A stretch of DNA of 64,000 nt from Escherichia phage EC121, in the sequence record NC_054909.1, one strand, 5' to 3'. The notes under the pieces were generated by a model, which had not been told where the DNA came from, did no database searches, and saw only the letters and a program-made list of their open reading frames with translations. Position numbers and translations under genes: made by a program. Below are positions 2,418 through 7,580 of this stretch, one piece after another. Each line of letters starts with the position of its first letter. Position 1 is the first letter of the stretch.

Positions 2418-2447
2418 ATTATACCACATCCTTGTGGTAAAGTAAAC
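2418..2447 (-). promoter_or_regulatory. sigma70-type early promoter (GTTTAC, 17 nt, TATAAT)
   Basis: Minus strand reads GTTTACTTTACCACAAGGATGTGGTATAAT just upstream of rIIA.1; a near-identical copy lies at 48692-48721. Confidence 0.6.
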
Positions 2448-4264
2448 TACTGGCTCATCCATTCTTTACGAAGGTCAGCATTATCCCCCATGAGCATTTC
2501 AAAAAGCTCTTTCCAATTCTCAGGAAGTTTAACAACATCATATACTGGGTTTTGAATCATCTCACGATATTCAGATTTTTCCAAAGAGCCAAGTCCCTTA
2601 ATATAACGGATGCTATGTTTAGGTAGAGCATCTTTGGCACTCTCATATTCAGCGACCGTATAAAACCATTCTTGTTTTTTACCGACCTGAGCGATGATTA
2701 CGGGAGTTTTGACGAAGCGAATTCTTCCTTGTTCAAACAGTTCTGGCCAATTACTAAAAAATCCGAGCAGAGAAGGATAAATGCTTCCTAGACCATCGTG
2801 GTCAGCATCAGTCATAATAGCAATATTATGATAATTCAAGTTTTCAGCCTTTTCACCAAGAACTAATCCAGTGATTGCGCAAATATCAAACAGTTCTTTG
2901 TTTTTAAGCATATCAGCATATGACATACCCCAACTGTTGAGAACTTTACCACGTAATGGATAACCGCCATGAAGTTCTTTATCACGAACATCAATAAGAT
3001 ATCCGATAGCAGAATCACCCTCAGTCAAGAAAAGAGTAGTGTCAGCGTCTTTACCGCAAAGATTCGCTTTAATATGTTTATGAACCTTAGCTTTAGAAGC
3101 CTTTTTAGCTGCTTTAGTTTCTGCTGCCTTTTCTGCCGCCAATTTACGAGCCAAAGCAGCTTCAATAATTGGCATTAAAATTGCTTCATTATTTAAAATA
3201 GCACGTGAAATCTTTTTAGCATCAAGCTGAATATGACTACGAATTTCACCAAATGGAGAAGTCAAACGCTCTTTAGTCTGAGAATCAAATCGCATGTTTT
3301 TCATATCACGAACAAACATAACGATAGTCAAACATTCTTTAACCCGTGCTTTAGTTACATCAATTTTGAACTTACGTTTGATTTGTGGAATAAGGTCTTC
3401 ACAAATATCATCCATAACGCAGTCAATGTGATGGCCGCCATTCTTAGTATGAATGTTATTAACGTATGTTAATTGACGAAAACCATCCAGTGAACGACCA
3501 ATCGCAATAGAACAATTTTCTTGTTCTTGAACGATAGCATGCTCATCATATTGGCGTGCGTATTTCTTAAAATTGCCCTGAACCTTTTTACCATTAAAGG
3601 TAAATTGAATATCAGGATAAACTACTGCAAGTGTCTGGAGACGATCTAGTGTAATGTCAAGATAAACCTGAGATAGCTCATTAGTTTCAAATGACATAAA
3701 ATCAGGAATGAAAGTAACACGAGTTCCTTTCCATTTTCCAGGAATAGTTTCCCATGATTTATTTTCCATGCCATTTGAACAACGAACTACAATATTATTT
3801 TGACCATCGCCAGTTTCACCGACAAACATCACAGAAAAAATGTTAGTTAAACTAGAACCAACACCGTTCATACCGCCAGTGACGCGTTCTTTATCATCAC
3901 CGAAGTTACCACCTGCTTTTGGAATAGTCCAGGCGGCAACAGGACCAGGAATTTCTTCGCCAGTAGGTGTTTTAACCATCGCTTGTGGAATACCACGACC
4001 GTTATCTTCAACAGTTACTTGATTGTTTTTAATAGTAACATTAATTTTATTCGCGAATTTAAACTTAGTACGAATACCTTCATCTACCGAGTTATCGATA
4101 ATTTCATCAATAAGCTTAACAAGACCAGGTACATACTGAACACTTTCCCATTTACCAAACAGAAAGCGCTCATGCATTTCATTAGCGGAAGAGCCAATGT
4201 ACATGCCGCTACGCTTTTTGATATGTTCAATATCGCTCAGAATTTTAATTTCATTCTTAATCAT
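2447..4264 (-). CDS. 39: DNA topoisomerase II large subunit, uninterrupted gp39 (T4 gene 39 plus gene 60 as one ORF)
   Basis: 605 aa from ATG at 4264 (track start 4267 is GTG); GyrB-like ATPase N-terminus; C-terminal 160 aa matches recalled T4 gp60 with no bypass gap or mobA insertion. Confidence 0.92.
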   Translation of the reverse strand: MIKNEIKILSDIEHIKKRSGMYIGSSANEMHERFLFGKWESVQYVPGLVKLIDEIIDNSVDEGIRTKFKFANKINVTIKNNQVTVEDNGRGIPQAMVKTPTGEEIPGPVAAWTIPKAGGNFGDDKERVTGGMNGVGSSLTNIFSVMFVGETGDGQNNIVVRCSNGMENKSWETIPGKWKGTRVTFIPDFMSFETNELSQVYLDITLDRLQTLAVVYPDIQFTFNGKKVQGNFKKYARQYDEHAIVQEQENCSIAIGRSLDGFRQLTYVNNIHTKNGGHHIDCVMDDICEDLIPQIKRKFKIDVTKARVKECLTIVMFVRDMKNMRFDSQTKERLTSPFGEIRSHIQLDAKKISRAILNNEAILMPIIEAALARKLAAEKAAETKAAKKASKAKVHKHIKANLCGKDADTTLFLTEGDSAIGYLIDVRDKELHGGYPLRGKVLNSWGMSYADMLKNKELFDICAITGLVLGEKAENLNYHNIAIMTDADHDGLGSIYPSLLGFFSNWPELFEQGRIRFVKTPVIIAQVGKKQEWFYTVAEYESAKDALPKHSIRYIKGLGSLEKSEYREMIQNPVYDVVKLPENWKELFEMLMGDNADLRKEWMSQ

Positions 4265-4317
4265 CACTTATCCTCGTTTGGTTTCGGGAATATTATACTC
4301 CGGTAATCATAAAGCTA

Positions 4318-4333
4318 AAGGCCCGAAGGCCTT
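4318..4333. terminator. GC stem-loop AAGGCC-CGAA-GGCCTT (UUCG loop on minus-strand RNA)
   Basis: Perfect 6-bp stem with tetraloop directly after the stop of the lipoprotein ORF; T-rich flank on plus side. Confidence 0.4.
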
Positions 4334-4603
4334 TTATTTAAAACGGATAGTCGAATCCTTGAAGAATAGACCAGAACATACGGTTCCTTCTACTTTCTGC
4401 CCGGTAGGTCCAATAGCACGAAATCCAGTATGTTGGAAATCATTTTCAGAGCAACCGAACCAATTGTATCCAGTGATTTCAATATTAGTAAAACCACTTG
4501 AAGATAAAACTTTGGTTGCATTATCAGCATCAGTACATCCTGCTAAAGACACTGCTAATACTAATGCTGCGATAGAACGATTAATATATTTCATAGTTTT
4601 CAC
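4334..4603 (-). CDS. predicted lipoprotein
   Basis: 89 aa; signal peptide ending in lipobox LAGC. Confidence 0.5.
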   Translation of the reverse strand: MKTMKYINRSIAALVLAVSLAGCTDADNATKVLSSSGFTNIEITGYNWFGCSENDFQHTGFRAIGPTGQKVEGTVCSGLFFKDSTIRFK

Positions 4604-4974
4604 TCAAATTTAATGGCTTGAAGGAGACTAATAATTCTCAAGCGACTTCTTTCATCTTTAACTGTAAAAGAAAGAGGGTCGCCAGATTTCATAGTGATAG
4701 TGCATTCAAAATCAAAATCTTCAGGAACTTCTTCGAAGAAGTCAAATTCTTCATCATAAATTAGAACTTCACTCCGCAGACTGTGAAGAATTTTTCCAGC
4801 ATTTCTGCTAGTTGCTGTACTAATCATTGTAACATTATGACCTTTCATATCTTCAACGATAAATTCGCTTGTAGATATTACGGCATTAATAGAACCATTC
4901 CTATTACTAGCAGAAAGTAGATATTTCTTTTCTTCACCTTCGCGAATGCGATATTTCTTACCAATTTTAAACAT
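4600..4974 (-). CDS. hypothetical protein
   Basis: 124-aa ORF, 4-nt overlap with downstream gene; no recognised domain. Confidence 0.45.
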   Translation of the reverse strand: MFKIGKKYRIREGEEKKYLLSASNRNGSINAVISTSEFIVEDMKGHNVTMISTATSRNAGKILHSLRSEVLIYDEEFDFFEEVPEDFDFECTITMKSGDPLSFTVKDERSRLRIISLLQAIKFE

Positions 4975-4976
4975 AA

Positions 4977-5153
4977 TTACCCTTTAAGTAAGTCGTAAAA
5001 ACCACCATTCACATGCTTAGGAGCGGAAACTAACCGAATAGCAACCCGATGACAATCAGGACATACATCAGTATCCCTTTCAGAAATTTTCTTGATTTTT
5101 TCGTATTCTTTTGCACAGTCTTTGGATTGACATTTATAATCATAAAGCGGCAT
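4977..5153 (-). CDS. small zinc-ribbon protein (FmdB-like CxxxxC...CxxC)
   Basis: 57-aa ORF not in the track (below 60 aa): MPLYDYKCQSKDCAKEYEKIKKISERDTDVCPDCHR...; fills the gap between neighbours with 2-nt spacers on both sides. Confidence 0.5.
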   Translation of the reverse strand: MPLYDYKCQSKDCAKEYEKIKKISERDTDVCPDCHRVAIRLVSAPKHVNGGFYDLLKG

Positions 5154-5155
5154 AA

Positions 5156-5569
5156 TTATTCCTTAAAGTGAGCTTTCAACATCTGATACAAAGACCATGC
5201 CTGTACATTATTTTCAATAGTAACGTTCATAACCGGGAATTCAGATGGATCAGTTATTGTTGCAGATTCTTCCTGCTCTTCAGCTGCCTGGTATGGATTT
5301 TCAACTTCATTAAAGAATTCAGCTTCATTCGATGAAAGCCAAATAAAATCTTCATCCAAAATATCTTTACCAGAAGATAGTACTAAATTTCCAGCAAATG
5401 ACATAATTTTAATAGGACGCCCAAGAGCATCCACATCTAAAATTTTAAAAGGATGCATACCTAAACGGCGTGCATAGATTCCGTTATCAGTATGGTCTTT
5501 AATAAAATTTTCTTGAGCTTGTTTATTTTTAAATTGATACCATTTATTAACTTCAAATTTAATAGCCAT
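5156..5569 (-). CDS. hypothetical protein
   Basis: 137-aa ORF, tightly packed; acidic C-terminal half. Confidence 0.5.
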
Positions 5570-5784
5570 TAATAAATTTCCTTCCAGTAAGTTGTACCAT
5601 CTTCAGTGATTTCACGAAATACACCGTAAATTGGTTGTTTATCCCCAACCTTTTCATACACATAAACCGAAGTCAAGTGAGTAAACTTAGCAGTGTGTTC
5701 CTTTTGAACTACTACCAAATCTGGATCGAATAACACATCTTCAAATTCGTCATTAGTGCAGCTCTGAACAATTTTACGTTTCAT
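5569..5784 (-). CDS. hypothetical small protein
   Basis: 71-aa ORF with GAGGAA RBS 5 nt upstream of ATG; overlaps downstream start by 1 nt. Confidence 0.5.
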
Positions 5785-5823
5785 TACAATTTCCTCATTA
5801 ATTGAACATTGGAGCGATGCGTT

Positions 5824-5945
5824 TCAGAAGAGTAGCAGCACCTTTGGCAAATTTTCCATTTTATTCTCCAAGTTATTTTCTGTATCAGTAGTTGATATTG
5901 ATATAGTACCATAATCAACTACTGATGTATACAGTTTTATGAAAA
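5824..5945 (-). repeat. promoter-leader cassette copy A (palindromic variant) with 11-codon upstream ORF
   Basis: Shares about 60 nt with copies at 25.1 and 53.1 kb (GGTACTATA..ATCAACTACTGATACAG..TTGGAGAATAAAATG); here a 17-bp inverted repeat flanks the -10 region; leader ATG at 5859 opens MENLPKVLLLF-stop. Confidence 0.5.
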
Positions 5946-5956
5946 AATTTTAAACT

Positions 5957-6445
5957 TTATGCATAGAGAGCTTTGCTATAGTGTTTAATCCAGCTTTCAG
6001 GAATGACTTTGTATGTTCCTAAAAATACCACATTATACAGCTTAACACCGTCTTCTACCCACTGATCGGTAATGTATGCGCACATAGCACGAGTATAAAC
6101 AGCCAAACCATCATCTTTGATAAATTTAAATTCACAAGGAGCAATGAACTTAATAGCCTGACCGAGTTTCCACTTAAAGTCTACACCTACATGCGAAGTA
6201 TCAATCGTTTCAATTCCTTTAGCAGGAACAGCTTTCAAAAACGCAGATTCAAGAAATTTCGCACGAACATAGCCAAACTGAGGTTTAGACTTTCCATCTT
6301 TAGGAATGATACGCACTTTTACTTCAGAATCTTCATCTTTAACGCCGTGTTTAAGCTGAATGCTTACAATTTCGACCAATTTTCCTGCTGCTTTAGAACG
6401 GGATTTATCAGATACACGAGCAATTTCACCAATATTAATAATCAT
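5957..6445 (-). CDS. hypothetical protein, paralog A of a tandem pair (motB-region)
   Basis: 162 aa; C-terminal CAYITDQWVEDGVKLYNVV matches CGWVTDQWIEDGVELLNVV in the next ORF. Confidence 0.55.
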   Translation of the reverse strand: MIINIGEIARVSDKSRSKAAGKLVEIVSIQLKHGVKDEDSEVKVRIIPKDGKSKPQFGYVRAKFLESAFLKAVPAKGIETIDTSHVGVDFKWKLGQAIKFIAPCEFKFIKDDGLAVYTRAMCAYITDQWVEDGVKLYNVVFLGTYKVIPESWIKHYSKALYA

Positions 6446-6489
6446 AGTTATCTCTCACTTGTTAAAAAGATTTTATACTCCACAGGACC

Positions 6490-6519
6490 ATTATACTCTG
6501 GTCCCAAGAGTTTGTAAAC
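6490..6519 (-). promoter_or_regulatory. early promoter (GTTTAC, 18 nt, TATAAT)
   Basis: Minus strand GTTTACAAACTCTTGGGACCAGAGTATAAT between the two paralogs; -10 lies in the loop of a short hairpin. Confidence 0.5.
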
Positions 6520-6521
6520 TA

Positions 6522-7007
6522 TTAATTCAAAATAGCTACCACTGCACTACGAGGTACTACGCTAAAATCACCTGCATGAACAACGTTCAGAAGTTCAACA
6601 CCATCTTCAATCCATTGGTCTGTTACCCAACCACAGACCGAAATAAATGGAGTCTTGATAGCTACTGCACGAGTCAAAAGGTCAGTAGGATCAACTTCTT
6701 TGAAGAGGATAAGCTCTGCTTCAAAGACTATAGTTTTAATTACTTCATCATTATCTAAGCGATGTGCTCGAATCACGTAAGCTTTATTCTTATCATACCA
6801 ATTACTTTTTGAAAAACTTTTAACCACAAACTCGCCTTCACCAAAAACACTAGTCAATGCTTTATAACCCAAATCTAGTTCAGTAGTTTTAATTTCAGTT
6901 TCAACCAGTTTGTAGGTTTTGCCAATTTCGATGGTCCGAGCAGTCATAAAGGTTTCCTTAATTTCTAATGGTTTAACAAGAGTGCCGTACATGCTTGCTA
7001 TATCCAT
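6522..7007 (-). CDS. hypothetical protein, paralog B of a tandem pair
   Basis: 161 aa; shares C-terminal motif with 5957-6445. Confidence 0.55.
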   Translation of the reverse strand: MDIASMYGTLVKPLEIKETFMTARTIEIGKTYKLVETEIKTTELDLGYKALTSVFGEGEFVVKSFSKSNWYDKNKAYVIRAHRLDNDEVIKTIVFEAELILFKEVDPTDLLTRAVAIKTPFISVCGWVTDQWIEDGVELLNVVHAGDFSVVPRSAVVAILN

Positions 7008-7067
7008 ATCAAATATTTTATCTATAGGATTTGGGGGTGTATTCAGGATTATAATTAAATTTCATAA

Positions 7068-7580
7068 TTATCTCATTTCAATAAAATCTACAAGTTCAGC
7101 ATGGGATTTGCGGAACATTACTTGGTGTCCGCCAATGATAACTTCATCTTCAGGAACTTCATAAATCGCAATGTACATTCCACGATCTTTTAAGTCTTCA
7201 CGCTCTTCTCGGGTGAACCATCTCATCATATCATATTCACTAGCGAAAGCAAAATGGTATAATGCAATAAACCGCGATGGAATATACTTTTCAGACGGTG
7301 AATAATTTTTATCCCATTTAGTTTTAATAGCATTATTAGCATTTTCAACTAATAACTTATCATCGTGTGGAATAGGAATACTTTCATGGCTTTCATAATT
7401 ATCGCTATGATGATGAAATGACGATGAATTAATACCACAAAATTTTAGCCAAGTTCGAGTTTTCATAGAATCAAATCCACGATAAGGAGTTGATTGCACG
7501 CATAACTCTTGCCTAATTTTCACTATACCACTATCATCATTTAATGCGCTAAACGATGATTCAACACGATAAATTTTCAT
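7068..7580 (-). CDS. hypothetical protein
   Basis: Track ORF trimmed to ATG at 7580 (MKIYRVESS...) with GAGGATAATAAA RBS; the longer track start falls inside the promoter. Confidence 0.5.
   Translation of the reverse strand: MKIYRVESSFSALNDDSGIVKIRQELCVQSTPYRGFDSMKTRTWLKFCGINSSSFHHHSDNYESHESIPIPHDDKLLVENANNAIKTKWDKNYSPSEKYIPSRFIALYHFAFASEYDMMRWFTREEREDLKDRGMYIAIYEVPEDEVIIGGHQVMFRKSHAELVDFIEMR

Follow-up and report, generated by a model that had tools for sequence, protein, structure and literature searches.

The window analysed here, a 64,000-nt stretch of one strand of the genome of Escherichia phage EC121 (sequence record NC_054909.1), covers the beginning of a Tequatrovirus (T4-like) genome. 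Over the 1.5 kb that surround the small open reading frame (ORF) described below, it shares 96-98% identity with many Tequatrovirus genomes (Escherichia, Shigella, Yersinia), with a value of 97.9% for the window region. Read along the minus strand, the gene order in this part of the window is cef, a goF-like gene, 39.2, a gene for a 124-aa product (ORF124), 39.1 and gene 39, and the coordinates of the genes and of the features within 39.2 are collected in Table 1. The first-pass annotation had placed a small gene exactly in the apparent gap between the 124-aa and the 137-aa ORFs, separated from each neighbour by 2 nt, and both observations were confirmed. Its coordinates were also right, but the product was given as 57 aa, when the ORF has 58 sense codons and a stop, and the strand was not stated. 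The explanation offered for the oversight holds: at 58 aa the product is shorter than the default minimum of 60 aa used in listing ORFs, so that 39.2 was not listed and the gap looked empty.

Table 1. Genes and sequence features at the 39.2 locus of phage EC121 (positions in the window).
Feature	Position	Strand	Details
39.2 (nwgI) ortholog	4977-5153	minus	58 codons plus TAA stop at 4977-4979; ATG start
Shine-Dalgarno AAGGA of 39.2	5160-5164	minus	6 nt 5' of ATG; minus-strand ...CACTTTAAGGAATAATTATG
Lys-Gly codons AAAGGG, last two of 39.2 (...LLKG, then stop)	4980-4985	minus	double as Shine-Dalgarno of the 124-aa gene; CTTAAAGGGTAATTATG
Predicted first metal-binding knuckle, C8-QSKD-C13	5115-5132	minus	C8 invariant; second ligand always there, spacing varies
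Predicted second metal-binding knuckle, C31-PD-C34	5052-5063	minus	C31 and C34 invariant in 10 phages of 8 genera
Post-ribbon motif, S43-APKHVNGGFY-D54	4992-5027	minus	A44, P45 and G51 invariant; G50, Y53 and D54 at least 90% conserved
Topoisomerase II large subunit, gene 39	2447-4267	minus	one fused 606-aa ORF
39.1	4334-4603	minus	matches PHROG 902
124-aa gene	4600-4974	minus	downstream of 39.2; PHROG 622; absent from T4
goF-like gene, 137 aa	5156-5569	minus	upstream of 39.2; PHROG 622 and goF PHROGs
cef	5569-5784	minus	Pfam T4_Cef, E 3e-35

The full product, MPLYDYKCQSKDCAKEYEKIKKISERDTDVCPDCHRVAIRLVSAPKHVNGGFYDLLKG, was recovered from a listing of ORFs of at least 30 aa. The minus-strand junctions on either side of 39.2 both read TAA-TT-ATG and form an identical octamer (TAATTATG), the nucleotides at 5154-5155 separating the stop codon of the 137-aa ORF from the ATG of 39.2 and those at 4975-4976 separating the stop codon of 39.2 from the ATG of the 124-aa ORF. 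The Shine-Dalgarno sequence of 39.2 is made by the closing sense codons, AAG GAA (Lys-Glu), of the goF-like gene, whose product ends in AHFKE, and T4 carries an identical Shine-Dalgarno sequence ahead of its own 39.2. Given that this sequence lies inside the end of the preceding gene and that the spacers are only 2 nt long, translation of 39.2 is probably coupled to that of the goF-like gene. As the last codons of one gene provide the Shine-Dalgarno sequence of the next, the C-terminal Lys-Gly of Gp39.2 may be doubly constrained, by the downstream ribosome-binding site and by the function of the protein.

The genes around 39.2 differ from those of T4 in two respects. The large subunit of topoisomerase II is encoded by a single ORF in EC121, whereas T4 has separate genes 39 and 60 for it, with a mobA insertion between them, and EC121 is thus without the gene 60 arrangement at this locus. 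T4 also lacks the 124-aa gene that separates 39.2 from 39.1 in EC121. This gene is present in RB3, RB69 (where it is longer, 140 aa) and UGKSEcP2. PHROG 622 is matched along the entire length of the 124-aa ORF (E 7e-30) and of the 137-aa ORF (E 9e-39), and both ORFs also show weaker matches to the goF PHROGs. A pairwise BLASTP comparison of the two, which would reveal a recent duplication, yields no alignment, and the pair may be an old goF-like duplication that brackets 39.2. The N-terminus of the predicted 39.1 product is lipoprotein-like (MKYINRSIAALVLAVSLAGC, lipobox LAGC), with a weak match to LPAM_1 (E 0.1), and suggests an early phage lipoprotein.

The locus was compared in 11 further phages belonging to Tequatrovirus, Mosigvirus, Gaprivervirus, Moonvirus, Roskildevirus, Krischvirus, Muldoonvirus and Certrevirus. 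The gene order of the window is shared by T4 (without ORF124), RB3, RB69, VR7 and UGKSEcP2, and goF occupies the slot upstream of 39.2 in T4, RB69, RB3 and VR7. Within the Tevenvirinae, 39.2 stays in the interval from goF to gene 39, and five genera of the Straboviridae retain it in the early-gene block next to the topoisomerase gene (Tequatrovirus, Mosigvirus, Moonvirus, Gaprivervirus and Roskildevirus). The homologue in Krischvirus JSE is located directly beside the topoisomerase gene, between it and dexA, and the one in CR9 (Vequintavirinae) is found in a different gene context.

The 58-aa product is identical to that of phage L14 and shares 98.3% identity with those of T6 and RB32 and 96.6% with that of resequenced T4 (OL964735), from which it differs at 2 of the 58 residues (L37V and V39I). 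The T4 gene has the same length, has goF upstream, and shares its start junction and Shine-Dalgarno sequence with the gene in the window. Features annotated under the match are named "39.2" in T4 AF158101, RB32, VR7 and vB_SsoM_113 and "gp39.2 conserved hypothetical protein" in JSE; other records use "FmdB-like transcriptional regulator", "zinc ribbon domain-containing protein" or "CxxC-CXXC-SSSS domain-containing protein". These identities and record names identify ORF 4977-5153 as the ortholog of T4 gene 39.2. The small gene is therefore one that is already known, as 39.2 (nwgI) of T4, a published modulator of GroEL that is annotated in many records, and biologically it is nothing new. Its description as untracked in the first-pass annotation applies to the initial ORF track and not to the public databases.

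In the T4 record AF158101.6 (1501-1680 of the extracted locus), 39.2 is annotated as encoding only 45 aa, with 90.9% identity to the EC121 product over 44 in-frame residues. Alignment of the DNA sequences revealed one extra T in 39.2 of AF158101 (GC-TCC to GCTTCC), which is absent from both OL964735 and the window. This additional base shifts the frame into a stop and accounts for the 45-aa product, and the conserved ...GFYDLLKG carries on in another frame beyond the shift. The T4 product is called a 58-amino-acid peptide by its discoverer (PMC5153855). The 45-aa annotation nevertheless still feeds omics tables (PMC9697503, Table S2). In the same T4 record 39.1 is also shortened, at 198 nt versus 261 nt. 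Elsewhere, the gene has been overlooked altogether in some public annotations: Erwinia phage Cronus (NC_055743, 1201-1383 of the extracted locus) carries a 39.2 homologue of 60 aa, MPVYNYECKCGEKF...GGFYDSLPK, that is unannotated between two hypothetical proteins, and the record of Escherichia phage AnYang (MK234886) has no feature under the match.

Four cysteines of the product are arranged as C8-x4-C13 and C31-x2-C34, the pattern that had been read in the first pass as FmdB-like, and 17 residues separate the two pairs. The profile search proposed there as a check placed the product in two curated zinc-ribbon families, with scores above the cut-off of each. For Pfam PF09723 (Zn_ribbon_8), residues 1-38 aligned to positions 1-37 of the 41 in the profile with a score of 42.8 bits (E 5.1e-11), where the gathering cut-off is 34.4. 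For NCBIfam TIGR02605 (CxxC_CxxC_SSSS), residues 1-45 aligned to positions 1-44 of 52 and scored 43.7 bits (E 2.2e-11), where the curated cut-off is 31.3. PHROG 1076 was also matched (E 8.5e-12). The product opens in the manner of TIGR02605, M1-P-L-Y-D-Y-K-C8, so that the ribbon runs from the initiator Met. Most but not all members of TIGR02605 have a degenerate, Ser-rich, low-complexity C-terminal tail. The EC121 product, which ends 5 residues past GGFY, has none, and as the tail is typical of the family but does not define it, its absence does not exclude membership. No structure of the protein or of its complex with GroEL was found, and a sequence search of the PDB gave no relative at E <1, returning only chance-level matches (E at least 1.5) to zinc fingers of ubiquitin-system enzymes. 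The single-sequence AlphaFold2 model (pLDDT 50.4, pTM 0.30), which has helices rather than a ribbon, is of too low confidence to use, and the fold is consequently assigned from the profile matches only.

Protein-level conservation in related phages, the absence of which had been named beforehand as the finding that would speak against a gene, is clear. A tblastn search with the 58-aa product matched 845 phage records, 839 of them with at least 80% coverage. All four putative Cys/His metal ligands are kept in each of the 10 phages aligned, and the product is predicted to bind zinc. The position of the second ligand varies: the T4-type phages have C-x4-C, Moon and Cronus have C-x-C, JSE and Muldoon have C-x2-H, and CR9 has C-x2-C. 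Residues M1, P2, Y4, Y6, C8, I23, E25, R26, C31, C34, A44, P45 and G51 are invariant in this alignment, and K22, G50, Y53 and D54 nearly so. Nei-Gojobori dN/dS values for the window gene were 0.024 against VR7 (19 synonymous and 3 non-synonymous differences), 0.07 against RB69 and RB3, 0.11 against Aplg8 and 0.12 against T4. Gene 39.2 is therefore under strong purifying selection (dN/dS 0.02-0.12). Relative to more distant genera, the synonymous sites are saturated and the motifs persist.

An ORF of this size could in principle arise by chance in an intergenic gap and have no protein product. It is short, some records such as that of Cronus leave it unannotated, and in a time-resolved omics study of T4 the 39.2 protein was undetected by mass spectrometry (Class_P = NA; PMC9697503, Table S2). 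The last point is weak evidence, as the protein is tiny and the reference used was the 45-aa version. The window has a GC content of only 34.5%, which makes stop codons frequent (0.078 per codon on the minus strand), and the probability of 57 successive sense codons in one frame is approximately 0.0095 at the window composition. When the 177 nt were shuffled, a full-length ORF from Met to stop was recovered in 0 of 5000 cases, the longest ORF having a median of 20 aa and a maximum of 55. Scores above curated HMM cut-offs, the low dN/dS together with motifs that outlast synonymous saturation, and the published genetic phenotype of a T4 39.2 deletion all run against a chance origin as well. The conservation pattern already refutes that explanation, the probability of which is negligible, and the 39.2 reading frame is a real gene. 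A 60-aa cut-off thus conceals small phage genes that are real and matter functionally, and an ORF that exactly fills a gap and has stop-NN-ATG junctions reliably points to them.

The T4 39.2 transcript is of the early class (PMC9697503, Table S2), and in EC121 the gene is apparently transcribed together with its neighbours in an early minus-strand block. It would be transcribed early within a tightly packed motB-cef-goF-39.2-39.1-39 block. Scans of positions 4000-7200 found 7 promoter-like sites, fewer than the 12.7 in shuffled sequence, and 2 terminator-like sites against 1.4 in shuffles, which is the chance level. A terminator-like hairpin at 5060-5045, within 39.2, sits in the codons for CPDCHR and was not considered functional.

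The gene is said to have been first picked up from RB69, and the homologues from T4, RB43 and RB49 reportedly act alike. The T4 protein was named NwgI by Ang and Georgopoulos 2012 (Genetics 190:989-1000; PMID 22234860; cited in PMC5153855). According to a later essay by the discoverer (PMC5153855) and one other paper citing that study, the protein moves GroEL towards its open form, to which co-chaperonin binds, and a phage with 39.2 deleted does not grow on certain groEL mutant hosts. The essay describes 39.2 as dispensable on wild-type E. coli, the deletion phenotype being seen only with particular groEL alleles. All functional evidence on Gp39.2 comes from one laboratory. The present analysis established that the EC121 gene is real, belongs to the zinc-ribbon family, is orthologous and syntenic to its T4 counterpart and evolves under purifying selection, whereas early transcription, the effect on GroEL and the deletion phenotype are taken from the T4 literature. 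As its product differs from that of T4 only by two conservative replacements, the T4 function can safely be transferred. The ORF in the window, the ortholog of T4 early gene 39.2, therefore very probably specifies a zinc-ribbon protein that acts on host GroEL, as judged by homology.

The 58-residue product would consist of an N-terminal four-ligand zinc ribbon of the FmdB/Zn_ribbon_8 type followed by a short conserved tail (SAPKHVNGGFYD). Once made, EC121 Gp39.2 would shift host GroEL to an open state able to bind either host GroES or phage gp31, and this shift may secure the chaperonin-dependent folding of phage proteins on hosts with suboptimal GroEL. Other phage proteins are known to adapt host GroEL to phage needs, namely the co-chaperonins gp31 of T4 and CocO of RB49 (PMC5649160). 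Gp39.2 resembles them in adapting the host GroEL machine but is unrelated to them in sequence and fold. In place of GroES, gp31 and CocO themselves form the lid of the GroEL chamber, whereas the action described for Gp39.2 is a shift in the conformational equilibrium of GroEL and not capping.

The name "FmdB-like transcriptional regulator", carried by PHROG 1076 and by many GenBank and RefSeq records, implies a different role, in which the zinc ribbon binds DNA or RNA polymerase and controls transcription of the phage or its host. The neighbouring early genes motB, goF and cef, which modulate transcription or RNA, fit such a role. The regulator name of the TIGR02605 family is inherited from a single putative regulator and is not known to reflect a tested activity, and NCBIfam now gives only "FmdB family zinc ribbon protein". 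The Pfam and NCBIfam searches detected no domain other than the zinc ribbon, and thus no DNA-binding domain, and the papers found report neither a transcription activity nor a transcription phenotype. The one known experimental study of 39.2 found a GroEL phenotype. A transcriptional role is thus very unlikely, and the regulator label that many phage records attach to 39.2 lacks support and is at odds with that study. Cellular proteins of the FmdB family are likewise often mislabelled as transcriptional regulators.

The limited deletion phenotype could also be explained if Gp39.2 were a small adaptor built on a zinc ribbon that acts on several targets in the host, GroEL being one of them and, on wild-type hosts, perhaps a secondary one. 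Dispensability on wild-type E. coli, with a phenotype limited to particular groEL alleles, is compatible with this, as is purifying selection that is strong regardless and extends over the 845 phage records, the non-T4-like Vequintavirinae included. Overproduction is reported to be lethal to the host, which would also agree with more than one target. However, no further target is reported in the papers found, and the genetic interaction with groEL and groES depends on the allele, which favours direct and specific contact. A multi-target adaptor is accordingly considered unlikely, and action on GroEL remains the preferred function of Gp39.2.

The phage alignment was also scanned against one genome per bacterial species, giving 98 confirmed cellular relatives, of which the best 80 were analysed. 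These 80 are from many phyla and share 32-56% identity with the phage proteins. As in Gp39.2, they begin with M-P-x-Y-x-Y-x-C and have two Cys pairs 17 residues apart, but their first knuckle is C-x2-C in place of the C-x4-C of the EC121 protein. In 21 of the 80, G-x-G-[FW]-[YHA] stands at residue 49-50, the place of GGFY in the phage proteins. Beyond this motif the phage proteins have 4-10 more residues, and the cellular ones a low-complexity tail with a median length of 50 aa that is rich in Ser, Ala and Lys. Gp39.2, which stops so soon after the motif, thus represents a minimal form within the family. One further proposal is that the cellular FmdB proteins sharing the ribbon and the G-x-G-F-Y motif could themselves be chaperonin modulators, the phage form having become minimal by tail loss. 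Motifs of chaperonin-60 were detected within 3 kb of the FmdB-like gene at only 1 of the 80 loci, so that synteny gives no support for a family-wide GroEL function, and the proposal is regarded as very unlikely for the cellular proteins. Their C termini fall into distinct classes: GSGFY followed by a low-complexity tail, "NERxxHEP...CGCG", the Cys-rich "GHGCGGGMCGC" (Actinomycetota, Bifidobacterium) and "GDGxxASKEQLQDKW" (Anaerolineae).
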